Source: Giardia intestinalis (taxonomy: Eukaryota). Taken from it: a DNA stretch of 22,518 nucleotides. Below the pieces are notes generated by a model. It saw only the letters and a list, made by a program, of their open reading frames with translations. It had not been told where the DNA came from and did not search any database. The position numbers were made by a program, and so were the translations under genes. Positions 1 to 18,670 of this stretch are shown here, piece by piece; position 1 is the first letter of the stretch, and each line of letters opens with the position of its first letter. The DNA lies in NCBI GenBank assembly GCA_000002435.2, contig AACB03000010.1; one strand, written 5' to 3'.

Positions 1-928
1 GAGGTACCAGCGGGGCCGGCCGATGGGCACGTGCTGCCACTGCAAGCAGCCCTTCCTTCCCAGGCACCATCTGGTGTGCAAGGCCATTAACGGGATTCAC
101 GTGCGCGGCACGACAAGATTCTGGACGCCCTGCTCGCGTGCTCCCGCGGTCGCGCTGGGTCTGTTGTGCGCAATCCCACGATCCCAGTGGATCACCTCCA
201 GCCTGACCTTGTCATCGGTGGGGGCTTCGGGGACTTGGTGGTCACTGTCCCGTGGAGGCTGGAGCGGTCCTATGCCCTGAAGGCCGCCAAGTATCGCCCC
301 TCGTGCTCCAGGGGCGGGCGGCCCACATCCTCCCCGTCGTGGTCGGTGCTGACGGCGTCCTGCACCACCTGTCTGCGGCCGGACTCGCGTTCGCCGGCGT
401 GGACCTTGCGCGCTTCATGCAGGAGGCGGCGCAGGTCATCCTCTGGCACTACAGGCTGTCGGCCCTCCTGTACGCTGGGCTGCGAGTGGGAGAGGCCGGT
501 GGCACCGCCCCGCCCCTGCAGTATCCCTGCCGGAACCGGCTCCCAACGAGGCTCGGGCTACTCCTCCTACTCCCCTCACCCCTGCCATGTGGAGCCCTGG
601 CACGTCGCCCTCCGTAGAGATCATGGCCGATCTCAGCCAGCATCCTGATGCGGCAGTCCCTCCTCCCTGGGGTCCTGCTGAGGTCTCCTCCTCGATCACC
701 TGGGGCACCGATCACCCCGCACAGCCGGATGCAAACGAACGCCCAGACCCCTTCATGTGCTCAAGGGCCCCCTCCCCGCCTCCACTGGATGACGACAGCC
801 CCGACGATGCAGGAGCACCCGAGCCGGTGCACAAGGCCCTGCCGTCCTTCTTCAAGCGCGTCGGTCCTCCCAAGCCGCATGCCCCTGATGGCTTCTACCC
901 CTTCAAACGCATCGACACGGGGCGCTAG
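1..928 (+). pseudogene. 3' fragment of the RT/REL-endonuclease ORF. It aligns to 7797..8723 of the full copy. It is truncated by the window start and interrupted by several 1-bp homopolymer indels, so the ORF track shows it broken into three reading frames (23..280, 166..648, 587..928).
   Basis: Near-identical to the C-terminal CCHC/PD-(D/E)xK region and tail of the 1109-aa ORF. Indels are seen at ~124 (g missing), ~295 (c missing) and ~487-500 (extra g's) relative to copy 7797..8723. The stop TAG at 926-928 is conserved. Confidence 0.8.
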
Positions 929-2283
929 TGGTCATGCTTGGGCACCCTGCCCGCTGTCGGCTGCCCCACAGCGCGAACGGACCCCTGGGCCTGCGTGCCG
1001 AGCTGTCTCCCCTGGTACTCCTCGCTCGCACCCGAGGCCTCTTGCCCCTATCATTCGGGTGTGCATCACGTCCAGACACGGTGCGATAGATGCCTAGCCG
1101 CGATGCCATACACACTCGACCAGGCCGGGCCAGGCCGGACGCCCCCCTGGATGGCCAGACACCCGCCCTGCCTACGTTTGGGCACTTCCTCGATGGGACT
1201 CGTCATCTGCCCACGCCGCAGCCCGGTGTTCGTCTGTCTGTCCTCCCGGGCAGCGGCGGTCCTTGGGTGCTGAGTCTGGCGAGCTGGTGCTGGGGGAAGA
1301 GGCTAGCCCCGTGTGTCATTCGTACCATCGCACCGCGCCGTGCTGATCCCCCCATGGAACTGCCCGCCAGTGGCCGCCTCCGGTCCGGGGCGGCACAGCC
1401 CTGGCTCGGGCCATCCTCTGCTGCAGCGCCCCGGTGCCCCCTGGAGAGGATGGCCGGGTGCTATGTGCTACTGAGCCCTCGGGTGCATCGCTTCCCCACT
1501 GCCCCCCCTCATGTACCCACTCTGGGCGCCCCGGTACAGGGAACCTGGTCACTCTGGCCCTGGCCTCCAGGTGCTTGCCCTCCAATGGGCCATCCCTCAT
1601 GCGCCTGTGTTTGCCTGGCCCATTCTCCCCTGCTCCTCTCTACCTCTCCTGCTCGGTCTCCGCTGAGTCGCGGTGACGGCTGTTGACAGTCCCGGCCGGG
1701 CCCCCAGGTTTCGCTCCATACCTGGGCCACATGCCTCCCACCAGCGCTGGCACCACATGGGTTGCTTGTCACAGATGGGACTGGCACGCACAGAAGAATA
1801 TGGCTCCACGGCGCTCTGCCGGTCTGTCCTGAGCTGGCGTCATCAGCCTGGACCCGCCCTTAGGGGGCCTCCTCCATCACCCGTGCCTCCCCACACCACC
1901 TCCTAAGCCGTCAGTCTGCTCTCTCAGGCGTGACCTTCTGTCGGCCTCCTGGGCCGTATGGGACCACCGCCCCGCTGCCCCCGCCATCTTGGCCAGACGC
2001 CTCCGGTGAGCCACCATTCTGGAATAGCACGACACGTGTGGATGGGCTAGCTATGGCGCACGGTCCGCACCCTCCCTTCTCACGGACTCCCGGGGACAGT
2101 CCGGACGCGTCTCCCTTGTCCCCGAATCGGTGGCCCCGGCCGATCCCCATCGTGCATCCTTATATGGGGCACTGCACACACCTGTCCACGCTGTCCCCTT
2201 GGGCCGGCCACAGCTCACCCCGTGTGTCGATGGGCCAGAATTTGGGCTCCCCAAACCCCTCCACCCCAAGCTGTTTCCTCGCC
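929..2283 (+). other. Unique ~1.36-kb non-coding region downstream of the ORF, degenerate copy (candidate 3' UTR segment).
   Basis: Colinear with 8724..10080 and 14200..15556. It contains only short P/R/G-rich ORFs typical of GC-rich non-coding DNA. It has two homopolymer indels relative to the interior copies. Confidence 0.6.
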
Positions 2284-5200
2284 GGTTCTCTGGGCTCGCG
2301 CTTCCCTTTTTAGTGCAACAGCATTATGGTGCCTCGCGTATGTGCGCGGTGCAGTGGGCCGGTCTGTAGGCCTGCCTTTGACTGGAATCCTGGATCCCTG
2401 GGTTTCTGGCCCGACGCGTCGTCTTCTACCCCCCAAACAGGCCTGCACTCTTCTTGGTCCACGGGCTATTTGTCTCTTTGTTTCCGCGGCCCAGGGCCTG
2501 CTGGTTGCGCCGGGGCGACGCTCATGGTGGATTTTATTTTTTCCAAATCCAGAATTTGGGCCTGAAGACCGCCCCCGCAGGGCCTGGAGGATGCGGGGAA
2601 TCGGTCCACCCACACCATGCGCTCGAGCAAAGGCCAAGCACCCACGCCATCACGTCTCATCCAGGACTCCTGCGCCGCCACGGAGGAGGATCGGCACCTT
2701 CGCCATCGATCCTCCAGGATGCCCCCTACCACTCCCCCTCACATGGCACGCCTCCCTCGGGCCTGTATGTCTGCATGCCGCTATGCCCTAACACCGCAGG
2801 CCGCCCTCTCCGCGGATCCACTAACACACAGCCTGCAGCGCCTGGCCCCCTGGCCGTGACCCGCGCGCCCCCGCGCACAGGAGCATACCCCTGGAGCTGG
2901 GGAGAAGGCCCCCCTGGCCGCGCCCCCGCCGCGAGACCACGCGGGCACGGGGCTGGGCGCCCCGGGCGGGCCCTTCCCCTCCGTCGTGAGGCTGCCTCCC
3001 CTCCAATGTCCTTACCGCCTTGCGCGCATATTACGTAGTAAACCGCCTCTGTCTGGTTCTCTGGGCTCGCGCTTCCCTTTTTAGTGCAACAGCATTATGG
3101 TGCCTCGCGTATGTGCGCGGTGCAGTGGGCCGGTCTGTAGGCCTGCCTTTGACTGGAATCCTGGATCCCTGGGTTTCTGGCCCGACGCGTCGTCTTCTAC
3201 CCCCCAAACAGGCCTGCACTCTTCTTGGTCCACGGGCTATTTGTCTCTTTGTTTCCGCGGCCCAGGGCCTGCTGGTTGCGCCGGGGCGACGCTCATGGTG
3301 GATTTTATTTTTTCCAAAATCCAGAATTTGGGCCTGAAGACCGCCCCCGCAGGGCCTGGAGGATGCGGGGAATCGGTCCACCCACACCATGCGCTCGAGC
3401 AAAGGCCAAGCACCCACGCCATCACGTCTCATCCAGGACTCCTGCGCCGCCACGGAGGAGGATCGGCACCTTCGCCATCGATCCTCCAGGATGCCCCCCT
3501 ACCACTCCCCCTCACATGGCACGCCTCCCTCGGGCCTGTATGTCTGCATGCCGCTATGCCCTAACACCGCAGGCCGCCCTCTCCGCGGATCCACTAACAC
3601 ACAGCCTGCAGCGCCTGGCCCCCCTGGCCGTGACCCGCGCGCCCCCGCGCACAGGAGCATACCCCTGGAGCTGGGGAGAAGGCCCCCCTGGCCGCGCCCC
3701 CGCCGCGAGACCACGCGGGCACGGGGGCTGGGCGCCCCGGGCGGGCCCTTCCCCTCCGTCGTGAGGCTGCCTCCCCTCCAATGTCCTTACCGCCTTGCGC
3801 GCATATTACGTAGTAAACCGCCTCTGTCTGGTTCTCTGGGCTCGCGCTTCCCTTTTTAGTGCAACAGCATTATGGTGCCTCGCGTATGTGCGCGGTGCAG
3901 TGGGCCGGTCTGTAGGCCTGCCTTTGACTGGAATCCTGGATCCCTGGGTTTCTGGCCCGACGCGTCGTCTTCTACCCCCCAAACAGGCCTGCACTCTTCT
4001 TGGTCCACGGGCTATTTGTCTCTTTGTTTCCGCGGCCCAGGGCCTGCTGGTTGCGCCGGGGCGACGCTCATGGTGGATTTTATTTTTTCCAAAATCCAGA
4101 ATTTGGGCCTGAAGACCGCCCCCGCAGGGCCTGGAGGATGCGGGGAATCGGTCCACCCACACCATGCGCTCGAGCAAAGGCCAAGCACCCACGCCATCAC
4201 GTCTCATCCAGGACTCCTGCGCCGCCACGGAGGAGGATCGGCACCTTCGCCATCGATCCTCCAGGATGCCCCCCTACCACTCCCCCTCACATGGCACGCC
4301 TCCCTCGGGCCTGTATGTCTGCATGCCGCTATGCCCTAACACCGCAGGCCGCCCTCTCCGCGGATCCACTAACACACAGCCTGCAGCGCCTGGCCCCCCT
4401 GGCCGTGACCCGCGCGCCCCCGCGCACAGGAGCATACCCCTGGAGCTGGGGAGAAGGCCCCCCTGGCCGCGCCCCCGCCGCGAGACCACGCGGGCACGGG
4501 GGCTGGGCGCCCCGGGCGGGCCCTTCCCCTCCGTCGTGAGGCTGCCTCCCCTCCAATGTCCTTACCGCCTTGCGCGCATATTACGTAGTAAACCGCCTCT
4601 GTCTGGTTCTCTGGGCTCGCGCTTCCCTTTTTAGTGCAACAGCATTATGGTGCCTCGCGTATGTGCGCGGTGCAGTGGGCCGGTCTGTAGGCCTGCCTTT
4701 GACTGGAATCCTGGATCCCTGGGTTTCTGGCCCGACGCGTCGTCTTCTACCCCCCAAACAGGCCTGCACTCTTCTTGGTCCACGGGCTATTTGTCTCTTT
4801 GTTTCCGCGGCCCAGGGCCTGCTGGTTGCGCCGGGGCGACGCTCATGGTGGATTTTATTTTTTCCAAAATCCAGAATTTGGGCCTGAAGACCGCCCCCGC
4901 AGGGCCTGGAGGATGCGGGGAATCGGTCCACCCACACCATGCGCTCGAGCAAAGGCCAAGCACCCACGCCATCACGTCTCATCCAGGACTCCTGCGCCGC
5001 CACGGAGGAGGATCGGCACCTTCGCCATCGATCCTCCAGGATGCCCCCCTACCACTCCCCCTCACATGGCACGCCTCCCTCGGGCCTGTATGTCTGCATG
5101 CCGCTATGCCCTAACACCGCAGGCCGCCCTCTCCGCGGATCCACTAACACACAGCCTGCAGCGCCTGGCCCCCCTGGCCGTGACCCGCGCGCCCCCGCGC

Positions 5201-5372
5201 ACAGGAGCATACCCCTGGAGCTGGGGAGAAGGCCCCCCTGGCCGCGCCCCCGCCGCGAGACCACGCGGGCACGGGGGCTGGGCGCCCCGGGCGGGCCCTT
5301 CCCCTCCGTCGTGAGGCTGCCTCCCCTCCAATGTCCTTACCGCCTTGCGCGCATATTACGTAGTAAACCGCC
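2284..5372 (+). repeat. Tandem array of four 775-bp monomers. The units are 2284-3054 (771 bp with 4 homopolymer deletions), 3055-3829, 3830-4604 and 4605-5372 (the terminal unit, lacking the last 7 bp 'tctgtct').
   Basis: Exact 775-bp periodicity is seen in identical strings and in the ORF-track repeats at 3020/3795/4570. Each unit starts 'ggttctctgggctcgcgcttccc' and ends 'cgcgcatattacgtagtaaaccgcc' + 'tctgtct'. Confidence 0.95.
5362..5367 (+). promoter_or_regulatory. AGTAAA hexamer (a poly(A)-signal variant; it also fits the AGTRAAY consensus as AGTAAAC), 8 nt upstream of the A16 tract.
   Basis: The sequence reads 'tacgtAGTAAAccgcccct(a)16'. The same hexamer ends every 775-bp monomer. It is a known functional variant of AATAAA, and its position fits a cleavage/polyadenylation site. 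Confidence 0.45.
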
Positions 5373-5375
5373 CCT

Positions 5376-5391
5376 AAAAAAAAAAAAAAAA
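5376..5391 (+). other. Pure A16 tract. It is either the poly(A) tail of the upstream element or an A-rich initiator located 2 nt upstream of the ATG.
   Basis: Homopolymer of 16 A between 'taaaccgcccct' and 'ccATG'. The length is identical at all three unit junctions. Confidence 0.9.
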
Positions 5392-5393
5392 CC

Positions 5394-8300
5394 ATGCGTT
5401 CCGCCCTTTCCGCGCCTTCGGGAACCACGGAGATCGGGGCTTCCTCAGGCCCAGAGCCTCCCAACCACGCTCCAACCGACTCCCACAGGCCCCTACCTAG
5501 GGGCACTCCCGATCCTATGACGCTGGGTGACGGCAACGATGCCTCGACGACCGCCATGGCCCGGCCTTCCTCTTGCGAGCCCCTCTGCGGCTCCCACGGG
5601 CCCCCATCCCCCCAGCCTGGGCCTGGCAACAGCCGTTCCGCCACGGACAACTCTCCCAATGAGTCTTCTCCTGTCCATGGCTTACAGGGCTCCGGGGCCT
5701 CGGTGGCCCGGGACGCCTCTCCTCCCTGCCTGTCGAACGACCTTCTGCCCTGTGGCCAGGAGCCCCTCCCGATTCCCGACGACGGCCTCCCATACGACCT
5801 GGGCCACGACAACTCCCCGTCCATCACGGACGAGCAGGAGGCCCGGGGCGCAGACCTGCCTGCTCCTGGGGGCCGTACGACTGTCTGCGAGCGCTGCGGA
5901 GAGGTGCTGCCTGACTCTGCGGCGATCGATGTCCACATCGGGATGCACCATCCGCCTCCCGGTTCACCTTCTCCGTCGCGCAGCCCTTCTCCGCTGTCGG
6001 GGTCTGCCCCTCCACCTGCAGCCGCCGAGCCCTCTCCCTCGCCAACGCCGGACCCTGTGTTCCCGTATGCATGCAGCATGTGCCGGGCCCGATACAAAAC
6101 GGAGAGGGGGCTGAAGGCCCATATCGCCAGGCTCGGCCACTACCTCCCGCTCGACGCCACAGTCCCCGAGCGCATCGGGGTGCCTAGTGGCAGCCCGTCC
6201 CCTGAGCTGCTTCGCCTCCTCACTGACGTATTCACAGAGATGGCGGGGCGCCTTCCTCCTGTAGAGGCCCTAGCGCGCTTCCTCTCGACGTGCCGCCGCA
6301 TGGAGGGCTCTGGACGGCTCCCCCCGGCGCAGTCGCTTCTCCGGAAGGGGCTGCTCGGCCGGGCATGGCAGGCGCTGTTGAGCGAGACGTCCTCTGCCGC
6401 CAGGGTCCCCGAGCCCCAGGGCAAGGAGCGGGAAGCGATTGTCCATGAGCTCCACCCGCGCCCCATGCCTGTCTCTCTGCCCCCCGTCCATCACGTGCTC
6501 GGCCCGTCGCCCAAGATAACGGCCAAGGCGCTGCTGAAGGAGCTGCAGGCGATGAGGCCTGTCGCGGCCGGACCCTCTGGGCTGGGGAAGCCTCACCTCC
6601 TGCACCTTTGTGGGGCCGCCGGGGCTGCGGAGCTCTTCACCTCTGTCCTGACGACCCTCTTCTCCAGCAGGAACTGGGCCCAGCTCCAGCCCCTGTGCGA
6701 GTTCAGGCTGAAGCTTCTGCCCAAGTCTGGCGGCCGATGGCGCCCTATCGCAGTGCAGGAGACGCTTCTGGTCGCCTTCCACCGCTTGCTCCTGCGTCGG
6801 ACTCCCGCGCTCCGCAAGCTCCCGGCGTGGCAGCTGGCCTTTGAGCACCTCGCCCAGATGAAGGCGATCCGCGCGGCCGAGGAGCTGAAGAGGACACACC
6901 ACCTGCTCACGGTGGATGTGCGGAATGCCTTCAACAGCGTCCCGCATTCCGTCATCCTCTTTGCGCTCCGCCGGGCAGGGGTGGTCCAGCCGACCGTCGC
7001 GTACATTGAGTCGTTCCTCGCGGCTCGGCACTCCTCGGACCTCCCCGCGGTCCCAGCGGGCGTGCCACAGGGGGACCCGCTGTCCATGGCGATGTTCTGC
7101 CAGAGCCTTGTCTGGCCGGTGGAGACGTACCTCGGCCAGTACAAGGTCGTTGCATACGCCGACGACCTCGTCATTGCGTCAGAGGAGGCGATTCCCATAG
7201 ATACCGTGAAGAGTGACGCGCAGTCTGCCCTCTCCCGCATAGGGCTCACGGTCGAGCTCTCGAAGTGCTCCTCGACCCAGGCCGGGGCGATCTCCTTCAT
7301 GGGCACCCGCGTGCTCAAGCACTCCTCCTTCAACCTCGCGCAGACATCGGCCCGCCGGCTCCACGAGCATCTCGCCGTCCTCCGTGCTTCGGGTCTCTCA
7401 CTCCACGACCGCCTCAGGCTCCTGTCTGCCTGCGTCGTCCCTGCAGTTAACTATGGACCCCTTGTTGACGACTACCCGGGCCCGTCCCCCTATGCCGACG
7501 TCGATGCGCAGATAGTGGAGGAGGTCGCGACCCTTCTGGAGATCCCCGAACCCCTTGCGAAGACCCTTGCTCTGACGCCCCGCGCGAAGTACGGCCTCGG
7601 ACTGGTGCTGCCCCATCACTACTACGACGAGATGCACAGGCAGCGCCAGGACATGAAGGCGGGCGTCTTCCGCGAGCTGAGGAAGAAGCGCCTGCAGGAC
7701 ACGGCCGCGCTCCGATCCTTCCTGCCGCTCGCATTGCTGGGCTGCGCACCCCTGGACAACACGCAGGTCCTGTTCATAGGGGACTGCTTGGCGGGGAGGT
7801 ACCAGCGGGGCCGGCCGATGGGCACGTGCTGCCACTGCAAGCAGCCCTTCCTTCCCAGGCACCATCTGGTGTGCAAGGCCATTAACGGGATTCACGTGGC
7901 GCGGCACGACAAGATTCTGGACGCCCTGCTCGCGTGCTCCCGCGGTCGCGCTGGGTCTGTTGTGCGCAATCCCACGATCCCAGTGGATCACCTCCAGCCT
8001 GACCTTGTCATCGGTGGGGGCTTCGGGGACTTGGTGGTCACTGTCCCGTGGAGGCTGGAGCGGTCCTATGCCCTGAAGGCCGCCAAGTATCGCCCCCTCG
8101 TGCTCCAGGGGCGGGCGGCCCACATCCTCCCCGTCGTGGTCGGTGCTGACGGCGTCCTGCACCACCTGTCTGCGGCCGGACTCGCGTTCGCCGGCGTGGA
8201 CCTTGCGCGCTTCATGCAGGAGGCGGCGCAGGTCATCCTCTGGCACTACAGGCTGTCGGCCCTCCTGTACGCTGGGCTGCGAGTGGAGAGGCCGGTGCAC

Positions 8301-8723
8301 CGCCCCGCCCCTGCAGTATCCCTGCCGGAACCGGCTCCCAACGAGGCTCGGGCTACTCCTCCTACTCCCCTCACCCCTGCCATGTGGAGCCCTGGCACGT
8401 CGCCCTCCGTAGAGATCATGGCCGATCTCAGCCAGCATCCTGATGCGGCAGTCCCTCCTCCCTGGGGTCCTGCTGAGGTCTCCTCCTCGATCACCTGGGG
8501 CACCGATCACCCCGCACAGCCGGATGCAAACGAACGCCCAGACCCCTTCATGTGCTCAAGGGCCCCCTCCCCGCCTCCACTGGATGACGACAGCCCCGAC
8601 GATGCAGGAGCACCCGAGCCGGTGCACAAGGCCCTGCCGTCCTTCTTCAAGCGCGTCGGTCCTCCCAAGCCGCATGCCCCTGATGGCTTCTACCCCTTCA
8701 AACGCATCGACACGGGGCGCTAG
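5394..8723 (+). CDS. Non-LTR retrotransposon polyprotein (1109 aa). It has an N-terminal S/P-rich region, 2x C2H2 zinc finger, reverse transcriptase, a CCHC motif and a REL (PD-(D/E)xK) endonuclease. The C-terminal ~150 aa is a P-rich extension.
   Basis: Intact RT motifs are present: LPKSGGRWRPIAV (motifs 1/2), LLTVDVRNAFNSVPH (A), AGVPQGDPLSMAMF (B'), VVAYADDLVIAS (C, YADD at 7155..7166), LTVELSKCS (D). CCHC 'CCHCKQPFLPRHHLVC' is followed by 'RHDKIL'. The endonuclease segment reads 'QPDLVIGGGFGDLVVTVPWRLERSYALKAAKY', matching the R2-type PDLV...D-V-T-V...K..KY pattern. The ATG sits immediately after the A16 tract. Antisense ORFs are low-complexity. Confidence 0.9.
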   Translation: MRSALSAPSGTTEIGASSGPEPPNHAPTDSHRPLPRGTPDPMTLGDGNDASTTAMARPSSCEPLCGSHGPPSPQPGPGNSRSATDNSPNESSPVHGLQGSGASVARDASPPCLSNDLLPCGQEPLPIPDDGLPYDLGHDNSPSITDEQEARGADLPAPGGRTTVCERCGEVLPDSAAIDVHIGMHHPPPGSPSPSRSPSPLSGSAPPPAAAEPSPSPTPDPVFPYACSMCRARYKTERGLKAHIARLGHYLPLDATVPERIGVPSGSPSPELLRLLTDVFTEMAGRLPPVEALARFLSTCRRMEGSGRLPPAQSLLRKGLLGRAWQALLSETSSAARVPEPQGKEREAIVHELHPRPMPVSLPPVHHVLGPSPKITAKALLKELQAMRPVAAGPSGLGKPHLLHLCGAAGAAELFTSVLTTLFSSRNWAQLQPLCEFRLKLLPKSGGRWRPIAVQETLLVAFHRLLLRRTPALRKLPAWQLAFEHLAQMKAIRAAEELKRTHHLLTVDVRNAFNSVPHSVILFALRRAGVVQPTVAYIESFLAARHSSDLPAVPAGVPQGDPLSMAMFCQSLVWPVETYLGQYKVVAYADDLVIASEEAIPIDTVKSDAQSALSRIGLTVELSKCSSTQAGAISFMGTRVLKHSSFNLAQTSARRLHEHLAVLRASGLSLHDRLRLLSACVVPAVNYGPLVDDYPGPSPYADVDAQIVEEVATLLEIPEPLAKTLALTPRAKYGLGLVLPHHYYDEMHRQRQDMKAGVFRELRKKRLQDTAALRSFLPLALLGCAPLDNTQVLFIGDCLAGRYQRGRPMGTCCHCKQPFLPRHHLVCKAINGIHVARHDKILDALLACSRGRAGSVVRNPTIPVDHLQPDLVIGGGFGDLVVTVPWRLERSYALKAAKYRPLVLQGRAAHILPVVVGADGVLHHLSAAGLAFAGVDLARFMQEAAQVILWHYRLSALLYAGLRVERPVHRPAPAVSLPEPAPNEARATPPTPLTPAMWSPGTSPSVEIMADLSQHPDAAVPPPWGPAEVSSSITWGTDHPAQPDANERPDPFMCSRAPSPPPLDDDSPDDAGAPEPVHKALPSFFKRVGPPKPHAPDGFYPFKRIDTGR
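5886..5952 (+). other. C2H2 zinc finger 1 (C-x2-C-x12-H-x3-H): CERCGEVLPDSAAIDVHIGMHH.
   Basis: Spacing of the Cys/His residues in the translated ORF. Confidence 0.75.
6072..6140 (+). other. C2H2 zinc finger 2 (C-x2-C-x12-H-x5-H): CSMCRARYKTERGLKAHIARLGH.
   Basis: Spacing of the Cys/His residues. It is separated from ZF1 by an SP-rich linker (SPSPSRSPSPLSGS...). Confidence 0.7.
6700..7320 (+). other. Reverse-transcriptase core (motifs 1 to E).
   Basis: LPK at 6717-6725, YADD at 7155-7166, FMGTRV at 7296-7313. Confidence 0.85.
7827..8090 (+). other. CCHC zinc motif plus restriction-enzyme-like (PD-(D/E)xK) endonuclease domain.
   Basis: tgc tgc cac tgc at 7827-7838, PD at 7998-8003, D of 'GDLVVTV' at 8028-8030, K..KY at ~8076-8090. 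Confidence 0.8.
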
Positions 8724-10080
8724 TGGTCATGCTTGGGCACCCTGCCCGCTGTCGGCTGCCCCACAGCGCGAACGGACCCCTGGGCCTGCGTGCCGAGCTG
8801 TCTCCCCTGGTACTCCTCGCTCGCACCCGAGGCCTCTTGCCCCTATCATTCGGGTGTGCATCACGTCCAGACACGGTGCGATAGATGCCTAGCCGCGATG
8901 CCATACACACTCGACCAGGCCGGGCCAGGCCGGACGCCCCCCTGGATGGCCAGACACCCGCCCTGCCTACGTTTGGGCACTTCCTCGATGGGACTCGTCA
9001 TCTGCCCACGCCGCAGCCCGGTGTTCGTCTGTCTGTCCTCCCGGGCAGCGGCGGTCCTTGGGTGCTGAGTCTGGCGAGCTGGTGCTGGGGGAAGAGGCTA
9101 GCCCCGTGTGTCATTCGTACCATCGCACCGCGCCGTGCTGATCCCCCCATGGAACTGCCCGCCAGTGGCCGCCTCCGGTCCGGGGCGGCACAGCCCTGGC
9201 TCGGGCCATCCTCTGCTGCAGCGCCCCGGTGCCCCCTGGAGAGGATGGCCGGGTGCTATGTGCTACTGAGCCCTCGGGTGCATCGCTTCCCCACTGCCCC
9301 CCCTCATGTACCCACTCTGGGCGCCCCGGTACAGGGAACCTGGTCACTCTGGCCCTGGCCTCCAGGTGCTTGCCCTCCAATGGGCCATCCCTCATGCGCC
9401 TGTGTTTGCCTGGCCCATTCTCCCCTGCTCCTCTCTACCTCTCCTGCTCGGTCTCCGCTGAGTCGCGGTGACGGCTGTTGACAGTCCCGGCCGGGCCCCC
9501 AGGTTTCGCTCCATACCTGGGCCACATGCCTCCCACCAGCGCTGGCACCACATGGGTTGCTTGTCACAGATGGGACTGGCACGCACAGAAGAATATGGCT
9601 CCACGGCGCTCTGCCGGTCTGTCCTGAGCTGGCGTCATCAGCCTGGACCCGCCCTTAGGGGGCCTCCTCCATCACCCGTGCCTCCCCACACCACCTCCTA
9701 AGCCGTCAGTCTGCTCTCTCAGGCGTGACCTTCTGTCGGCCTCCTGGGCCGTATGGGACCACCGCCCCGCTGCCCCCGCCATCTTGGCCAGACGCCTCCG
9801 GTGAGCCACCATTCTGGAATAGCACGACACGTGTGGATGGGCTAGCTATGGCGCACGGTCCGCACCCTCCCTTCTCACGGACTCCCGGGGACAGTCCGGA
9901 CGCGTCTCCCTTGTCCCCCGAATCGGTGGCCCCGGCCGATCCCCATCGTGCATCCTTATATGGGGCACTGCACACACCTGTCCACGCTGTCCCCTTGGGC
10001 CGGCCACAGCTCACCCCGTGTGTCGATGGGCCAGAATTTGGGCTCCCCAAACCCCTCCACCCCCAAGCTGTTTCCTCGCC
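8724..10080 (+). other. Unique 1357-bp non-coding region following the ORF stop (candidate 3' UTR). It ends '...ccaagctgtttcctcgcc' immediately before the first monomer.
   Basis: Conserved in all units. It has no convincing coding potential. The ORFs in it (e.g. 8885..9481) are P/G/R-rich and out of frame with the RT. Confidence 0.65.
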
Positions 10081-10848
10081 GGTTCTCTGGGCTCGCGCTT
10101 CCCTTTTTAGTGCAACAGCATTATGGTGCCTCGCGTATGTGCGCGGTGCAGTGGGCCGGTCTGTAGGCCTGCCTTTGACTGGAATCCTGGATCCCTGGGT
10201 TTCTGGCCCGACGCGTCGTCTTCTACCCCCCAAACAGGCCTGCACTCTTCTTGGTCCACGGGCTATTTGTCTCTTTGTTTCCGCGGCCCAGGGCCTGCTG
10301 GTTGCGCCGGGGCGACGCTCATGGTGGATTTTATTTTTTCCAAAATCCAGAATTTGGGCCTGAAGACCGCCCCCGCAGGGCCTGGAGGATGCGGGGAATC
10401 GGTCCACCCACACCATGCGCTCGAGCAAAGGCCAAGCACCCACGCCATCACGTCTCATCCAGGACTCCTGCGCCGCCACGGAGGAGGATCGGCACCTTCG
10501 CCATCGATCCTCCAGGATGCCCCCCTACCACTCCCCCTCACATGGCACGCCTCCCTCGGGCCTGTATGTCTGCATGCCGCTATGCCCTAACACCGCAGGC
10601 CGCCCTCTCCGCGGATCCACTAACACACAGCCTGCAGCGCCTGGCCCCCCTGGCCGTGACCCGCGCGCCCCCGCGCACAGGAGCATACCCCTGGAGCTGG
10701 GGAGAAGGCCCCCCTGGCCGCGCCCCCGCCGCGAGACCACGCGGGCACGGGGGCTGGGCGCCCCGGGCGGGCCCTTCCCCTCCGTCGTGAGGCTGCCTCC
10801 CCTCCAATGTCCTTACCGCCTTGCGCGCATATTACGTAGTAAACCGCC
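10081..10848 (+). repeat. Single (terminal-type, 768-bp) copy of the 775-bp monomer.
   Basis: Identical to the terminal monomers 4605-5372 and 17882-18649. Confidence 0.95.
10838..10843 (+). promoter_or_regulatory. AGTAAA poly(A)-signal-like hexamer, 8 nt before the A16 tract.
   Basis: Same context as 5362-5367. Confidence 0.45.
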
Positions 10849-10851
10849 CCT

Positions 10852-10867
10852 AAAAAAAAAAAAAAAA
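10852..10867 (+). other. A16 tract at the unit junction.
   Basis: 16 A's, followed by 'cc' and then ATG at 10870. Confidence 0.9.
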
Positions 10868-10869
10868 CC

Positions 10870-13800
10870 ATGCGTTCCGCCCTTTCCGCGCCTTCGGGAA
10901 CCACGGAGATCGGGGCTTCCTCAGGCCCAGAGCCTCCCAACCACGCTCCAACCGACTCCCACAGGCCCCTACCTAGGGGCACTCCCGATCCTATGACGCT
11001 GGGTGACGGCAACGATGCCTCGACGACCGCCATGGCCCGGCCTTCCTCTTGCGAGCCCCTCTGCGGCTCCCACGGGCCCCCATCCCCCCAGCCTGGGCCT
11101 GGCAACAGCCGTTCCGCCACGGACAACTCTCCCAATGAGTCTTCTCCTGTCCATGGCTTACAGGGCTCCGGGGCCTCGGTGGCCCGGGACGCCTCTCCTC
11201 CCTGCCTGTCGAACGACCTTCTGCCCTGTGGCCAGGAGCCCCTCCCGATTCCCGACGACGGCCTCCCATACGACCTGGGCCACGACAACTCCCCGTCCAT
11301 CACGGACGAGCAGGAGGCCCGGGGCGCAGACCTGCCTGCTCCTGGGGGCCGTACGACTGTCTGCGAGCGCTGCGGAGAGGTGCTGCCTGACTCTGCGGCG
11401 ATCGATGTCCACATCGGGATGCACCATCCGCCTCCCGGTTCACCTTCTCCGTCGCGCAGCCCTTCTCCGCTGTCGGGGTCTGCCCCTCCACCTGCAGCCG
11501 CCGAGCCCTCTCCCTCGCCAACGCCGGACCCTGTGTTCCCGTATGCATGCAGCATGTGCCGGGCCCGATACAAAACGGAGAGGGGGCTGAAGGCCCATAT
11601 CGCCAGGCTCGGCCACTACCTCCCGCTCGACGCCACAGTCCCCGAGCGCATCGGGGTGCCTAGTGGCAGCCCGTCCCCTGAGCTGCTTCGCCTCCTCACT
11701 GACGTATTCACAGAGATGGCGGGGCGCCTTCCTCCTGTAGAGGCCCTAGCGCGCTTCCTCTCGACGTGCCGCCGCATGGAGGGCTCTGGACGGCTCCCCC
11801 CGGCGCAGTCGCTTCTCCGGAAGGGGCTGCTCGGCCGGGCATGGCAGGCGCTGTTGAGCGAGACGTCCTCTGCCGCCAGGGTCCCCGAGCCCCAGGGCAA
11901 GGAGCGGGAAGCGATTGTCCATGAGCTCCACCCGCGCCCCATGCCTGTCTCTCTGCCCCCCGTCCATCACGTGCTCGGCCCGTCGCCCAAGATAACGGCC
12001 AAGGCGCTGCTGAAGGAGCTGCAGGCGATGAGGCCTGTCGCGGCCGGACCCTCTGGGCTGGGGAAGCCTCACCTCCTGCACCTTTGTGGGGCCGCCGGGG
12101 CTGCGGAGCTCTTCACCTCTGTCCTGACGACCCTCTTCTCCAGCAGGAACTGGGCCCAGCTCCAGCCCCTGTGCGAGTTCAGGCTGAAGCTTCTGCCCAA
12201 GTCTGGCGGCCGATGGCGCCCTATCGCAGTGCAGGAGACGCTTCTGGTCGCCTTCCACCGCTTGCTCCTGCGTCGGACTCCCGCGCTCCGCAAGCTCCCG
12301 GCGTGGCAGCTGGCCTTTGAGCACCTCGCCCAGATGAAGGCGATCCGCGCGGCCGAGGAGCTGAAGAGGACACACCACCTGCTCACGGTGGATGTGCGGA
12401 ATGCCTTCAACAGCGTCCCGCATTCCGTCATCCTCTTTGCGCTCCGCCGGGCAGGGGTGGTCCAGCCGACCGTCGCGTACATTGAGTCGTTCCTCGCGGC
12501 TCGGCACTCCTCGGACCTCCCCGCGGTCCCAGCGGGCGTGCCACAGGGGGACCCGCTGTCCATGGCGATGTTCTGCCAGAGCCTTGTCTGGCCGGTGGAG
12601 ACGTACCTCGGCCAGTACAAGGTCGTTGCATACGCCGACGACCTCGTCATTGCGTCAGAGGAGGCGATTCCCATAGATACCGTGAAGAGTGACGCGCAGT
12701 CTGCCCTCTCCCGCATAGGGCTCACGGTCGAGCTCTCGAAGTGCTCCTCGACCCAGGCCGGGGCGATCTCCTTCATGGGCACCCGCGTGCTCAAGCACTC
12801 CTCCTTCAACCTCGCGCAGACATCGGCCCGCCGGCTCCACGAGCATCTCGCCGTCCTCCGTGCTTCGGGTCTCTCACTCCACGACCGCCTCAGGCTCCTG
12901 TCTGCCTGCGTCGTCCCTGCAGTTAACTATGGACCCCTTGTTGACGACTACCCGGGCCCGTCCCCCTATGCCGACGTCGATGCGCAGATAGTGGAGGAGG
13001 TCGCGACCCTTCTGGAGATCCCCGAACCCCTTGCGAAGACCCTTGCTCTGACGCCCCGCGCGAAGTACGGCCTCGGACTGGTGCTGCCCCATCACTACTA
13101 CGACGAGATGCACAGGCAGCGCCAGGACATGAAGGCGGGCGTCTTCCGCGAGCTGAGGAAGAAGCGCCTGCAGGACACGGCCGCGCTCCGATCCTTCCTG
13201 CCGCTCGCATTGCTGGGCTGCGCACCCCTGGACAACACGCAGGTCCTGTTCATAGGGGACTGCTTGGCGGGGAGGTACCAGCGGGGCCGGCCGATGGGCA
13301 CGTGCTGCCACTGCAAGCAGCCCTTCCTTCCCAGGCACCATCTGGTGTGCAAGGCCATTAACGGGATTCACGTGGCGCGGCACGACAAGATTCTGGACGC
13401 CCTGCTCGCGTGCTCCCGCGGTCGCGCTGGGTCTGTTGTGCGCAATCCCACGATCCCAGTGGATCACCTCCAGCCTGACCTTGTCATCGGTGGGGGCTTC
13501 GGGGACTTGGTGGTCACTGTCCCGTGGAGGCTGGAGCGGTCCTATGCCCTGAAGGCCGCCAAGTATCGCCCCCTCGTGCTCCAGGGGCGGGCGGCCCACA
13601 TCCTCCCCGTCGTGGTCGGTGCTGACGGCGTCCTGCACCACCTGTCTGCGGCCGGACTCGCGTTCGCCGGCGTGGACCTTGCGCGCTTCATGCAGGAGGC
13701 GGCGCAGGTCATCCTCTGGCACTACAGGCTGTCGGCCCTCCTGTACGCTGGGCTGCGAGTGGAGAGGCCGGTGCACCGCCCCGCCCCTGCAGTATCCCTG

Positions 13801-14199
13801 CCGGAACCGGCTCCCAACGAGGCTCGGGCTACTCCTCCTACTCCCCTCACCCCTGCCATGTGGAGCCCTGGCACGTCGCCCTCCGTAGAGATCATGGCCG
13901 ATCTCAGCCAGCATCCTGATGCGGCAGTCCCTCCTCCCTGGGGTCCTGCTGAGGTCTCCTCCTCGATCACCTGGGGCACCGATCACCCCGCACAGCCGGA
14001 TGCAAACGAACGCCCAGACCCCTTCATGTGCTCAAGGGCCCCCTCCCCGCCTCCACTGGATGACGACAGCCCCGACGATGCAGGAGCACCCGAGCCGGTG
14101 CACAAGGCCCTGCCGTCCTTCTTCAAGCGCGTCGGTCCTCCCAAGCCGCATGCCCCTGATGGCTTCTACCCCTTCAAACGCATCGACACGGGGCGCTAG
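10870..14199 (+). CDS. Non-LTR retrotransposon RT/REL-endonuclease polyprotein, second full copy (1109 aa, identical translation).
   Basis: The ORF-track protein is identical to 5394..8723. All overlapping alternative-frame ORFs are also identical, implying nucleotide identity. Confidence 0.9.
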   Translation: MRSALSAPSGTTEIGASSGPEPPNHAPTDSHRPLPRGTPDPMTLGDGNDASTTAMARPSSCEPLCGSHGPPSPQPGPGNSRSATDNSPNESSPVHGLQGSGASVARDASPPCLSNDLLPCGQEPLPIPDDGLPYDLGHDNSPSITDEQEARGADLPAPGGRTTVCERCGEVLPDSAAIDVHIGMHHPPPGSPSPSRSPSPLSGSAPPPAAAEPSPSPTPDPVFPYACSMCRARYKTERGLKAHIARLGHYLPLDATVPERIGVPSGSPSPELLRLLTDVFTEMAGRLPPVEALARFLSTCRRMEGSGRLPPAQSLLRKGLLGRAWQALLSETSSAARVPEPQGKEREAIVHELHPRPMPVSLPPVHHVLGPSPKITAKALLKELQAMRPVAAGPSGLGKPHLLHLCGAAGAAELFTSVLTTLFSSRNWAQLQPLCEFRLKLLPKSGGRWRPIAVQETLLVAFHRLLLRRTPALRKLPAWQLAFEHLAQMKAIRAAEELKRTHHLLTVDVRNAFNSVPHSVILFALRRAGVVQPTVAYIESFLAARHSSDLPAVPAGVPQGDPLSMAMFCQSLVWPVETYLGQYKVVAYADDLVIASEEAIPIDTVKSDAQSALSRIGLTVELSKCSSTQAGAISFMGTRVLKHSSFNLAQTSARRLHEHLAVLRASGLSLHDRLRLLSACVVPAVNYGPLVDDYPGPSPYADVDAQIVEEVATLLEIPEPLAKTLALTPRAKYGLGLVLPHHYYDEMHRQRQDMKAGVFRELRKKRLQDTAALRSFLPLALLGCAPLDNTQVLFIGDCLAGRYQRGRPMGTCCHCKQPFLPRHHLVCKAINGIHVARHDKILDALLACSRGRAGSVVRNPTIPVDHLQPDLVIGGGFGDLVVTVPWRLERSYALKAAKYRPLVLQGRAAHILPVVVGADGVLHHLSAAGLAFAGVDLARFMQEAAQVILWHYRLSALLYAGLRVERPVHRPAPAVSLPEPAPNEARATPPTPLTPAMWSPGTSPSVEIMADLSQHPDAAVPPPWGPAEVSSSITWGTDHPAQPDANERPDPFMCSRAPSPPPLDDDSPDDAGAPEPVHKALPSFFKRVGPPKPHAPDGFYPFKRIDTGR

Positions 14200-15556
14200 T
14201 GGTCATGCTTGGGCACCCTGCCCGCTGTCGGCTGCCCCACAGCGCGAACGGACCCCTGGGCCTGCGTGCCGAGCTGTCTCCCCTGGTACTCCTCGCTCGC
14301 ACCCGAGGCCTCTTGCCCCTATCATTCGGGTGTGCATCACGTCCAGACACGGTGCGATAGATGCCTAGCCGCGATGCCATACACACTCGACCAGGCCGGG
14401 CCAGGCCGGACGCCCCCCTGGATGGCCAGACACCCGCCCTGCCTACGTTTGGGCACTTCCTCGATGGGACTCGTCATCTGCCCACGCCGCAGCCCGGTGT
14501 TCGTCTGTCTGTCCTCCCGGGCAGCGGCGGTCCTTGGGTGCTGAGTCTGGCGAGCTGGTGCTGGGGGAAGAGGCTAGCCCCGTGTGTCATTCGTACCATC
14601 GCACCGCGCCGTGCTGATCCCCCCATGGAACTGCCCGCCAGTGGCCGCCTCCGGTCCGGGGCGGCACAGCCCTGGCTCGGGCCATCCTCTGCTGCAGCGC
14701 CCCGGTGCCCCCTGGAGAGGATGGCCGGGTGCTATGTGCTACTGAGCCCTCGGGTGCATCGCTTCCCCACTGCCCCCCCTCATGTACCCACTCTGGGCGC
14801 CCCGGTACAGGGAACCTGGTCACTCTGGCCCTGGCCTCCAGGTGCTTGCCCTCCAATGGGCCATCCCTCATGCGCCTGTGTTTGCCTGGCCCATTCTCCC
14901 CTGCTCCTCTCTACCTCTCCTGCTCGGTCTCCGCTGAGTCGCGGTGACGGCTGTTGACAGTCCCGGCCGGGCCCCCAGGTTTCGCTCCATACCTGGGCCA
15001 CATGCCTCCCACCAGCGCTGGCACCACATGGGTTGCTTGTCACAGATGGGACTGGCACGCACAGAAGAATATGGCTCCACGGCGCTCTGCCGGTCTGTCC
15101 TGAGCTGGCGTCATCAGCCTGGACCCGCCCTTAGGGGGCCTCCTCCATCACCCGTGCCTCCCCACACCACCTCCTAAGCCGTCAGTCTGCTCTCTCAGGC
15201 GTGACCTTCTGTCGGCCTCCTGGGCCGTATGGGACCACCGCCCCGCTGCCCCCGCCATCTTGGCCAGACGCCTCCGGTGAGCCACCATTCTGGAATAGCA
15301 CGACACGTGTGGATGGGCTAGCTATGGCGCACGGTCCGCACCCTCCCTTCTCACGGACTCCCGGGGACAGTCCGGACGCGTCTCCCTTGTCCCCCGAATC
15401 GGTGGCCCCGGCCGATCCCCATCGTGCATCCTTATATGGGGCACTGCACACACCTGTCCACGCTGTCCCCTTGGGCCGGCCACAGCTCACCCCGTGTGTC
15501 GATGGGCCAGAATTTGGGCTCCCCAAACCCCTCCACCCCCAAGCTGTTTCCTCGCC
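14200..15556 (+). other. Unique ~1.36-kb post-ORF region (candidate 3' UTR), copy 2.
   Basis: Identical to 8724..10080. Confidence 0.65.
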
Positions 15557-18500
15557 GGTTCTCTGGGCTCGCGCTTCCCTTTTTAGTGCAACAGCATTAT
15601 GGTGCCTCGCGTATGTGCGCGGTGCAGTGGGCCGGTCTGTAGGCCTGCCTTTGACTGGAATCCTGGATCCCTGGGTTTCTGGCCCGACGCGTCGTCTTCT
15701 ACCCCCCAAACAGGCCTGCACTCTTCTTGGTCCACGGGCTATTTGTCTCTTTGTTTCCGCGGCCCAGGGCCTGCTGGTTGCGCCGGGGCGACGCTCATGG
15801 TGGATTTTATTTTTTCCAAAATCCAGAATTTGGGCCTGAAGACCGCCCCCGCAGGGCCTGGAGGATGCGGGGAATCGGTCCACCCACACCATGCGCTCGA
15901 GCAAAGGCCAAGCACCCACGCCATCACGTCTCATCCAGGACTCCTGCGCCGCCACGGAGGAGGATCGGCACCTTCGCCATCGATCCTCCAGGATGCCCCC
16001 CTACCACTCCCCCTCACATGGCACGCCTCCCTCGGGCCTGTATGTCTGCATGCCGCTATGCCCTAACACCGCAGGCCGCCCTCTCCGCGGATCCACTAAC
16101 ACACAGCCTGCAGCGCCTGGCCCCCCTGGCCGTGACCCGCGCGCCCCCGCGCACAGGAGCATACCCCTGGAGCTGGGGAGAAGGCCCCCCTGGCCGCGCC
16201 CCCGCCGCGAGACCACGCGGGCACGGGGGCTGGGCGCCCCGGGCGGGCCCTTCCCCTCCGTCGTGAGGCTGCCTCCCCTCCAATGTCCTTACCGCCTTGC
16301 GCGCATATTACGTAGTAAACCGCCTCTGTCTGGTTCTCTGGGCTCGCGCTTCCCTTTTTAGTGCAACAGCATTATGGTGCCTCGCGTATGTGCGCGGTGC
16401 AGTGGGCCGGTCTGTAGGCCTGCCTTTGACTGGAATCCTGGATCCCTGGGTTTCTGGCCCGACGCGTCGTCTTCTACCCCCCAAACAGGCCTGCACTCTT
16501 CTTGGTCCACGGGCTATTTGTCTCTTTGTTTCCGCGGCCCAGGGCCTGCTGGTTGCGCCGGGGCGACGCTCATGGTGGATTTTATTTTTTCCAAAATCCA
16601 GAATTTGGGCCTGAAGACCGCCCCCGCAGGGCCTGGAGGATGCGGGGAATCGGTCCACCCACACCATGCGCTCGAGCAAAGGCCAAGCACCCACGCCATC
16701 ACGTCTCATCCAGGACTCCTGCGCCGCCACGGAGGAGGATCGGCACCTTCGCCATCGATCCTCCAGGATGCCCCCCTACCACTCCCCCTCACATGGCACG
16801 CCTCCCTCGGGCCTGTATGTCTGCATGCCGCTATGCCCTAACACCGCAGGCCGCCCTCTCCGCGGATCCACTAACACACAGCCTGCAGCGCCTGGCCCCC
16901 CTGGCCGTGACCCGCGCGCCCCCGCGCACAGGAGCATACCCCTGGAGCTGGGGAGAAGGCCCCCCTGGCCGCGCCCCCGCCGCGAGACCACGCGGGCACG
17001 GGGGCTGGGCGCCCCGGGCGGGCCCTTCCCCTCCGTCGTGAGGCTGCCTCCCCTCCAATGTCCTTACCGCCTTGCGCGCATATTACGTAGTAAACCGCCT
17101 CTGTCTGGTTCTCTGGGCTCGCGCTTCCCTTTTTAGTGCAACAGCATTATGGTGCCTCGCGTATGTGCGCGGTGCAGTGGGCCGGTCTGTAGGCCTGCCT
17201 TTGACTGGAATCCTGGATCCCTGGGTTTCTGGCCCGACGCGTCGTCTTCTACCCCCCAAACAGGCCTGCACTCTTCTTGGTCCACGGGCTATTTGTCTCT
17301 TTGTTTCCGCGGCCCAGGGCCTGCTGGTTGCGCCGGGGCGACGCTCATGGTGGATTTTATTTTTTCCAAAATCCAGAATTTGGGCCTGAAGACCGCCCCC
17401 GCAGGGCCTGGAGGATGCGGGGAATCGGTCCACCCACACCATGCGCTCGAGCAAAGGCCAAGCACCCACGCCATCACGTCTCATCCAGGACTCCTGCGCC
17501 GCCACGGAGGAGGATCGGCACCTTCGCCATCGATCCTCCAGGATGCCCCCCTACCACTCCCCCTCACATGGCACGCCTCCCTCGGGCCTGTATGTCTGCA
17601 TGCCGCTATGCCCTAACACCGCAGGCCGCCCTCTCCGCGGATCCACTAACACACAGCCTGCAGCGCCTGGCCCCCCTGGCCGTGACCCGCGCGCCCCCGC
17701 GCACAGGAGCATACCCCTGGAGCTGGGGAGAAGGCCCCCCTGGCCGCGCCCCCGCCGCGAGACCACGCGGGCACGGGGGCTGGGCGCCCCGGGCGGGCCC
17801 TTCCCCTCCGTCGTGAGGCTGCCTCCCCTCCAATGTCCTTACCGCCTTGCGCGCATATTACGTAGTAAACCGCCTCTGTCTGGTTCTCTGGGCTCGCGCT
17901 TCCCTTTTTAGTGCAACAGCATTATGGTGCCTCGCGTATGTGCGCGGTGCAGTGGGCCGGTCTGTAGGCCTGCCTTTGACTGGAATCCTGGATCCCTGGG
18001 TTTCTGGCCCGACGCGTCGTCTTCTACCCCCCAAACAGGCCTGCACTCTTCTTGGTCCACGGGCTATTTGTCTCTTTGTTTCCGCGGCCCAGGGCCTGCT
18101 GGTTGCGCCGGGGCGACGCTCATGGTGGATTTTATTTTTTCCAAAATCCAGAATTTGGGCCTGAAGACCGCCCCCGCAGGGCCTGGAGGATGCGGGGAAT
18201 CGGTCCACCCACACCATGCGCTCGAGCAAAGGCCAAGCACCCACGCCATCACGTCTCATCCAGGACTCCTGCGCCGCCACGGAGGAGGATCGGCACCTTC
18301 GCCATCGATCCTCCAGGATGCCCCCCTACCACTCCCCCTCACATGGCACGCCTCCCTCGGGCCTGTATGTCTGCATGCCGCTATGCCCTAACACCGCAGG
18401 CCGCCCTCTCCGCGGATCCACTAACACACAGCCTGCAGCGCCTGGCCCCCCTGGCCGTGACCCGCGCGCCCCCGCGCACAGGAGCATACCCCTGGAGCTG

Positions 18501-18649
18501 GGGAGAAGGCCCCCCTGGCCGCGCCCCCGCCGCGAGACCACGCGGGCACGGGGGCTGGGCGCCCCGGGCGGGCCCTTCCCCTCCGTCGTGAGGCTGCCTC
18601 CCCTCCAATGTCCTTACCGCCTTGCGCGCATATTACGTAGTAAACCGCC
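15557..18649 (+). repeat. Tandem array of four 775-bp monomers: 15557-16331, 16332-17106, 17107-17881 and 17882-18649 (terminal, 768 bp).
   Basis: Exact periodicity. ORF-track repeats are seen at 16297/17072/17847. Confidence 0.95.
18639..18644 (+). promoter_or_regulatory. AGTAAA poly(A)-signal-like hexamer, 8 nt before the A16 tract.
   Basis: Same context as the other junctions. Confidence 0.45.
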
Positions 18650-18652
18650 CCT

Positions 18653-18668
18653 AAAAAAAAAAAAAAAA
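18653..18668 (+). other. A16 tract at the unit junction.
   Basis: 16 A's, followed by 'cc' and then ATG at 18671. Confidence 0.9.
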
Positions 18669-18670
18669 CC

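Follow-up and report, generated by a model that had tools for sequence, protein, structure and literature searches.

Giardia reportedly carries telomere-associated retrotransposons that lack long terminal repeats (non-LTR), namely GilM and GilT (Genie 1), said to have been described by Arkhipova and Morrison in 2001 and by Burke et al. in 2002. Their arrays, the head-to-tail layout and the telomeric role have been known since 2001-2002. The elements are described as lying head-to-tail and in one orientation between subtelomeric and telomeric repeats, with long 3′ untranslated regions (UTRs) and with some copies truncated at the 5′ end (PMC5537684), and about four copies of a 5,474-bp GilM are placed at the end of chromosome 5 in the WB assembly (Xu et al., 2020; PMC7000408). 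Our study concerns a stretch of 22,518 nucleotides (nt) from Giardia intestinalis (GenBank assembly GCA_000002435.2, contig AACB03000010.1), referred to here as the window, which is a head-to-tail array of one unit with every unit on the + strand. On the strength of its sequence we identify the element as this known telomere-associated non-LTR retrotransposon, the GilM of Xu et al. and the Genie 1 of Burke et al. Our overall reading, which we hold with good confidence, is of a GilM / Genie 1 head-to-tail array in which the tracts of adenines at the junctions between units derive from poly(A) tails, are equal in length through the identity of the copies, and probably serve as promoters.

The junctions are defined by the string AGTAAACCGCCCCT followed by 16 adenines (A16), CC and ATG, which occurs exactly three times in the 22.5-kb window, always on the + strand (5362-5396, 10838-10872 and 18639-18673). 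The preliminary description had claimed an A16 tract before each of three ATGs, lying 8 nt after an AGTAAA hexamer and 2 nt before the start codon; the tract was found at all three sites, and both gaps (CCGCCCCT and CC, respectively) hold at three of three junctions. Dinucleotide-preserving shuffles give an expectation of 0 perfect A16 tracts, and these three are the only runs of at least seven A or T in a window of approximately 66% G+C. The pattern is thus genuine and cannot be put down to chance. All three junctions also share the same 60 nt before the tract and the same 40 nt after it, and must thus be treated as copies of one sequence and not as three independent observations. An intact 1109-codon open reading frame (ORF) begins at the ATG of each junction. 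The features of the window, all on the + strand, are as follows.

5376-5391, + strand: A16 tract of junction 1, read as a copy of the upstream element's poly(A) tail, with the next element's CC-ATG directly 3′
10852-10867, + strand: A16 tract of junction 2
18653-18668, + strand: A16 tract of junction 3
5362-5368, + strand: AGTAAAC, a Giardia poly(A) signal (AGTRAAY); also 10838-10844 and 18639-18645
5353-5367, + strand: ATATTACGTAGTAAA, an AT-rich patch at -41 to -27 from the ATG; also 10829-10843 and 18630-18644
5392-5396, + strand: CC and ATG at the 5′ end of the element, giving a leader of at most a few nt; also 10868-10872 and 18669-18673
5394-8723, + strand: ORF of copy A, 1109 amino acids (aa), with N-terminal C2H2 fingers, a reverse transcriptase (RT) and a C-terminal CCHC / RHD / PD..D endonuclease-like region
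10870-14199, + strand: ORF of copy B, 1109 aa, identical to copy A
18671-22000, + strand: ORF of copy C, 1109 aa, identical to copy A
8724-10076, + strand: unique part of the 3′ UTR of copy A, about 1.35 kb; counterpart in copy B at 14200-15552
10077-10851, + strand: the one 775-bp 3′ UTR repeat of copy A, with the terminal variant AGTAAACCGCCCCT at its end; the unit is 5476 bp
15553-18652, + strand: four tandem 775-bp 3′ UTR repeats of copy B; the unit is 7801 bp (5476 + 3 x 775)
2280-5375, + strand: 3′ UTR of the partial first unit, with four repeats in tandem, one of 771 bp and then three of 775 bp
5228-5300, + strand: G+C-rich hairpin of about 73 nt that lies 62-134 nt 5′ of the poly(A) signal and recurs in all 775-bp repeats (e.g. 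10704-10776 and 18505-18577)
16314-16320, + strand: internal AGTAAAC without an A-tract, continuing CGCCTCTGTCTGG, i.e. uncleaved sequence past the poly(A) site
3037, 3812, 4587, 17089 and 17864, + strand: starts of further internal AGTAAAC motifs without an A-tract

The identity of the element rests on its protein and on its layout. In a domain search the ORF matched RVT_1 at E = 3.8e-21, with a weak C2H2 finger match, and it is 100% identical to an NCBI protein annotated as 'putative Reverse transcriptase/endonuclease [Giardia duodenalis]', which has three consecutive accessions (KAE8301202-4) on a 4.02-Mb contig. An early GenBank entry, AAL47180.1, falls within the 90% protein cluster of the ORF. 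The Genie-1 primers printed in PMC1950533 align to the window with 0 mismatches, at 6650-6669 and 6952-6969; the unit of 5476 bp compares with the 5,474-bp GilM of Xu et al. (PMC7000408), and the one-orientation array with a long, repeat-bearing 3′ UTR agrees with the description in PMC5537684. The likeness to GilM / GilT (Genie 1) therefore covers protein, primers, unit length, orientation and 3′ UTR; the 5′-truncated copies near telomeric repeats are matched by a related locus and not by the window, and nothing substantive sets the window element apart.

Among solved structures the best match was the R2 retrotransposon protein, to which the RT region aligns at E = 6e-9 and the zinc-finger and C-terminal CCHC/RHD/PD..D regions align weakly. 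Elements of the R2 and CRE clades resemble the window element in having a single ORF with N-terminal zinc fingers, an RT in the middle and, at the C terminus, CCHC together with a restriction-like endonuclease region, and also in a conserved structured element in the 3′ UTR. R2 differs in that it lacks a poly(A) tail and sits in 28S ribosomal DNA between flanks of target sequence, whereas the units of the window abut one another through a poly(A) tract with no foreign target visible. A specific host target on both sides, as in an R2-type insertion, is absent from the window, as is any non-element flank; what precedes each element is in every case another copy's poly(A) tract.

The junctions of relatives were read in the loci of proteins obtained from a homology search and a cluster listing. 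The order AGTAAA, 7 to 10 nt, (A)n, CC or CCC, ATG is kept at 11 homologous junctions, with the A-tract followed by CC(C)-ATG in every relative examined (CCA-ATG once), and this holds even in families with 52-63% protein identity. The ATG lying 2-3 nt past the tract begins a full ORF (1109-1160 aa) in nine distinct elements; the exceptions are a degenerate copy (L003) with no full ORF after its tract and a junction at the start of a contig (L008). The tract lengths in these loci are as follows.

L009, 99.8% identical to the window unit: A6
L003, degenerate copy: A7
L001, P15, two adjacent units: A9 and A15
L004, metagenome contig: A10
L006, metagenome contig: A10
L010, Logan contig: A11
L002, P15: A12
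L007, P15: A12
L008, AHGT01000152: A12
L005, Logan contig: A15

Across the window and its relatives the tract thus ranges from A6 to A16 over 14 junctions, in agreement with the earlier remark that a poly(A) tail normally varies in length between insertions. The two adjacent L001 units are identical at 99.95% of positions, gap-free over 5.8 kb, and yet carry A15 and A9. The spacer between hexamer and tract also differs between close copies, being CCGCCCCT in the window and CCCTCTCTC in L009, as would be expected if separate transcripts had been cleaved at heterogeneous sites. As far as the sequences compared here go, the tract is conserved in its presence and its position but varies in length. 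Metagenome scans with the 5′ end of the ORF and with the conserved 3′ UTR block returned no match in either case.

The position of the tract is that of a tail at a Giardia cleavage site. The poly(A) signal of Giardia is AGURAA, with the consensus AGTRAAY (PMC1872034); AGUAAA is its commonest form genome-wide, and the modal distance to the cleavage site is 13-15 nt (PMC9014877). The motif AGTAAAC of the window conforms to this consensus, and the first A lies 14 nt from the start of the hexamer at three of three junctions, within the mode, which vindicates the suggestion that hexamer and spacing fit a cleavage/poly(A) site. At ten matched junctions of other loci the distance is 13-16 nt, so that 13 of 13 tabulated junctions, including those of the window, fall in this range. 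Uncleaved sequence is also available for comparison: the internal repeats read CCTCT-GTCTGG and the last 3′ end of L001 reads AGTAAATTCCCCTC TGTCTACTCTGCC, both possessing the poly(A) signal without the A's and continuing CTCTGTCT. Judged by its position and by comparison with relatives, the A-tract is a DNA copy of an mRNA poly(A) tail. A genomic A16 would itself cause internal priming in oligo(dT) methods.

A further 3′ end is seen in G. duodenalis assembly AHGT01000152 (L008), where a copy that matches the window unit at 95% identity has AGTAAATTCCC as its terminus. At 5484-5520 of this locus the AGTAAATTCCC end carries no A-tract and is followed by approximately four CCCTA telomeric units and then by a 5′-truncated copy that begins in the zinc-finger region. 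Since this 3′ end is joined straight to telomeric repeats, the mobile unit would end at the poly(A) site, and the 775-bp repeat would therefore be part of the 3′ UTR of the element. The arrangement at 5484-5520 has the appearance of a footprint of chromosome-end erosion, telomerase healing and renewed element addition. In the window (5372-5377) and in L004 (1132-1140), the bases before the tail together with its initial A spell CCCTA, which in the telomere repeat of Giardia is the unit of the C strand; CCCTA at the tail joint could let a telomeric G-overhang prime reverse transcription. We considered CCCCT+A as a general telomere mimic and retain it as no more than a side observation, as it is true of the window, L004 and L008 and fails in the remaining relatives.

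These comparisons suggest a model in which the unit would consist of CC-ATG, one ORF of 1109 aa (zinc fingers, reverse transcriptase and endonuclease), the 3′ UTR, AGTAAAC-N7 and the A-tract. Target-primed reverse transcription would copy a poly(A) tail that had been added where Giardia transcripts are canonically cleaved. The length of the tract is no designed constant, and 16 A's would occur thrice through homogenisation of the array, polishing of a collapsed repeat, or both. Tails of the LINE-1 type are similar in that an A-tract lies directly 3′ of the poly(A) signal and varies in length among copies; they differ in that LINE-1-type insertions have a target-site duplication and host DNA after the tract, where the Giardia element has the next copy's start codon. 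As candidate routes, arrays might grow by terminal addition, by endonuclease-mediated insertion at a junction or by recombination; the mechanism is described as unclear in the literature (PMC5537684).

The identity of the copies bears directly on why 16 A's are found three times. Copies A and B show 0 mismatches over 5457 nt, and across four units and nine 775-bp repeats there are zero substitutions besides the C/T difference that marks the terminal repeats. The remaining differences between copies are 1-nt insertions or deletions (indels), most of them in runs of G, C or A and all in the two outer partial units, a pattern that resembles residual long-read consensus error more than divergence. 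These indels lie at 1-5000 and 22032-22518 of the window, and some of them frameshift the first partial ORF. By simple arithmetic, three independent draws from the eleven lengths outside the window would be equal approximately 4% of the time, which argues that the three junctions share one origin. The equal length of the tracts follows from the fact that the assembled copies are identical throughout, and is not specific to the tract. As the source of this identity the evidence supports recent exchange within the array (gene conversion or unequal crossing-over), the polishing of a collapsed repeat to a consensus, or both. The number of repeats varies by exact multiples of 775 bp. The unit with one repeat carries the terminal-type C variant and so is not a product of polyadenylation at the first internal signal, and its sequence points to a deletion between repeats at the DNA level; since it also lacks the GTCT joint, simple duplication could not turn it into the form with four repeats.

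Three explanations had been offered for the equal length, namely amplification at the DNA level, smoothing by the assembler and a templated functional sequence, and they have fared differently. The first two both gain support, from the zero substitutions and the exclusively 1-nt indels between copies and from the published account of the region as collapsed and polished by majority rule (PMC7000408). The third is contradicted by relatives with intact ORFs, which carry A6, A9, A10, A11, A12 and A15. In its strict form it would hold that the A-tract is templated and that selection has fixed its length, as in an initiator needing exactly 16 A's, so that it would be no remnant of a tail. Three tracts of the same length in the window and the constant place of an A-tract directly upstream of CC-ATG in relatives speak for such an element; against it stand lengths of 6 to 16 among elements with intact ORFs of 1109-1160 aa, 15 and 9 A's in adjacent near-identical copies, and the location of the tract exactly at the point of poly(A) tail addition, and the approximately 4% chance of equal draws favours a common origin of the three copies over selection for a given length. 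We regard this explanation as very improbable, and as already largely refuted by the comparative sequence data. A more serious possibility is that the equal length is purely a product of assembly, the true array being larger and its tracts heterogeneous, with the modal length written into every copy by the consensus of long reads and the majority-rule correction from short reads. Read depth over the GilM region is 1,800x against 200x genome-wide (approximately 9-fold), the optical map shows more copies than the assembled sequence, and the PacBio draft, which contained homopolymer errors, was polished with Quiver and then by an Illumina rule of at least 50% support (PMC7000408). The restriction of differences between copies to 1-nt indels, mostly in homopolymers, is typical of the residue of long-read consensus, and both the tract (A6) and the spacer differ in a copy from another data set that is 99.8% identical. 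The assembler nevertheless kept structural differences (one and four repeats; 771 and 775 bp), so that not everything was collapsed; recent unequal crossing-over within a subtelomeric array should likewise produce copies that are truly identical, and the tie of the window to the assembly of Xu et al. is drawn from matching protein accessions and the published description. On balance we give a pure assembly product a substantial chance, though somewhat short of even.

The boundary of the element has also been placed elsewhere. According to a view attributed by citation to Burke et al. (2002), the element, taken to extend from CC-ATG to where the unique 3′ region stops, inserts site-specifically into a satellite; the approximately 771-bp repeat would then be chromosomal and the A-tract would belong to the insertion site or 5′ junction. 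A tandem array leaves the limits of its unit formally ambiguous, the boundary of the element lies at a single fixed position in the repeat, in place of GTCT, and the protein has an R2-like endonuclease region, all of which would suit such an arrangement. It does not account for an A-tract 14 nt after a poly(A) signal internal to the repeat, which is expected only if the repeat is transcribed as the 3′ UTR of the element, nor for L008, in which the telomeric repeats adjoin a 3′ end derived from the repeat instead of the unique region. No junction from A-tract to GTCTGG or from CCTCT to CCATG is present in the window. Moreover, the last ~200 nt of the repeat are 81-87% conserved at the nucleotide level while the ORFs of the same families are ~70% identical, which argues that this segment belongs to the element. 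We therefore consider the satellite explanation unlikely, and prefer the repeat as part of the 3′ UTR. The G+C-rich hairpin of the 3′ UTR is nearly invariant among families with 52-63% protein identity; in 2-3 of 7 sequences both sides of two apical pairs are altered, from GC to AU, and its minimum free energy is -58.4 kcal/mol, with a z-score of just -2.2. The hairpin may be a candidate RNA element recognised by the reverse transcriptase. A search of one full unit against Rfam returned no family at E up to 1, and no known ribozyme or R2-like RNA element was detected in it.

Giardia core promoters are described as having two AT-rich parts, an initiator where transcription starts and another element ~30 bp upstream, and 5′ UTRs can be as short as ~3 nt (PMC1885649). 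Two AT-rich patches precede each ATG in the window, A16 at -18 to -3 and ATATTACGTAGTAAA at -41 to -27, both contributed by the 3′ end of the upstream copy, and the layout of a patch at the ATG with a second ~30 bp upstream is thus present in the sequence. No 12-nt window with at least nine A/T occurs anywhere in the ORF. The element would essentially lack a 5′ UTR, so that the 3′ end of the upstream copy would supply the sole AT-rich sequence before the ATG. ATATTACGTAGTAAA shares bases with the poly(A) signal and is a candidate for the upstream, TATA-like element of a promoter; the sequence makes it most likely that ATATTACGTAGTAAA and the A-tract act together as the TATA-like and initiator core promoter of the downstream copy. 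Because of this pair of patches and the conserved adjacency of A-tract, CC and ATG, each copy is likely transcribed from the tail of its neighbour, the upstream ATATTACGTAGTAAA and A-tract driving the downstream copy in our model; the earlier suggestion of a promoter context for the following copy agrees with both observations. The in-frame ATG right behind the tract is kept in all relatives, which favours Met1 as the predicted start of the protein. Several automatic gene calls for the region at 5394-5519 begin at Met42; current annotation begins at Met1, 2 nt past the A-tract.

This arrangement is reminiscent of the Drosophila HeT-A element, for which 'promoting in tandem' is reported (Danilevskaya et al., 1997, as cited in PMC5537684). 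Both form telomeric head-to-tail arrays in which the upstream 3′ end would supply the promoter to a copy nearly without a 5′ UTR. The HeT-A promoter occupies the last few hundred bp of the 3′ UTR and has been mapped experimentally, while the Giardia candidate spans ~40 bp, made up of the region of the poly(A) signal and the tail, and is inferred; the Giardia element, unlike HeT-A, encodes its own RT and endonuclease. We tentatively raise the further idea, to which we give a less than even chance, that the junction is a self-renewing module, its A/T tract combining the roles of poly(A)-site context for the upstream copy, initiator for the downstream copy and priming site for insertions. If so, the T-run of the bottom strand would pair with an incoming poly(A) tail, new copies would be expressed only when they land head-to-tail behind another copy, and the confinement of intact elements to arrays, as well as the array without a visible host target site, would be explained.

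Several points weigh against our overall reading. The names used in the literature are inconsistent, and since Genie is equated with GilT in one later paper, the GilM/GilT label is uncertain. No telomeric repeat, (TAGGG)n, was found in the window; telomere adjacency is suggested by the 95% identical L008 copy, which joins (CCCTA)~4 and is followed by a 5′-truncated copy, and by the location of the array of Xu et al. at the end of chromosome 5. Entry AAL47180.1 (1068 aa) begins at Met42 of the 1109-aa ORF, and use of the first ATG is putative. Both the 3′ end of the transcript and the start site of the element are predicted from sequence. Short-read and 454 assemblies can misjudge homopolymers, and the tract lengths outside the window are thus approximate. 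Finally, other AT-rich patches inside each 775-bp repeat could also initiate transcription.

The largest AT-rich stretch besides the junction is a T-rich patch, GTGGATTTTATTTTTTCCAAAATCCAGAATTT, at 4848-4879 of the window and in each 775-bp copy (e.g. 10324-10355). AT-rich patches of this kind in Giardia can act as cryptic, bidirectional start sites. The patches internal to the repeat might contribute to the double-stranded RNA that has been reported for the Genie-1 element, as cited in PMC1950533.

The observation holds but is an ordinary one, being the expected junction of a known retrotransposon array, and the rules for poly(A) signals and AT-rich promoters are established Giardia biology; it carries little weight as a discovery. 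The description of the ends (A6-A16, a distance of 13-16 nt from hexamer to tail and an invariant CC(C)-ATG) could guide annotation of the start codon and the design of promoter tests.

Within the array the 3′ UTR ranges from ~2.1 to 4.4 kb, with one or four 775-bp repeats; the first repeat of the partial first unit is 771 bp through four 1-nt deletions. Each 3′ UTR repeat comprises 771 homologous nt and a 4-nt joint, GTCT, and the copy number is 4, 1 and 4 along successive units. Every 775-bp copy has AGTAAAC near its end. The internal copies end AGTAAACCGCCTCT followed by GTCTGG, and the end in which CCGCCCCT is followed by A16 is restricted to the last copy of each unit, the terminal and internal copies differing by one base, C/T (CCGCCCCT and CCGCCTCT, respectively). 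The AGTAAAC in each internal repeat is apparently intact and evidently read through. Long ORFs on the minus strand, such as that at 5144-6097, where the tract is translated into consecutive Phe residues, have no independent support, and we take them for by-products of the high G+C content.

A caution follows for arrays of this kind, as equal homopolymer lengths in a collapsed and polished repeat hold no independent information. The Logan contig L010 shows how arrays collapse: its ends (1-30 and 5480-5509) overlap by 30 nt, from which it follows that a short-read assembler closed the tandem array into a circular unit of ~5479 bp with a single A11 junction.

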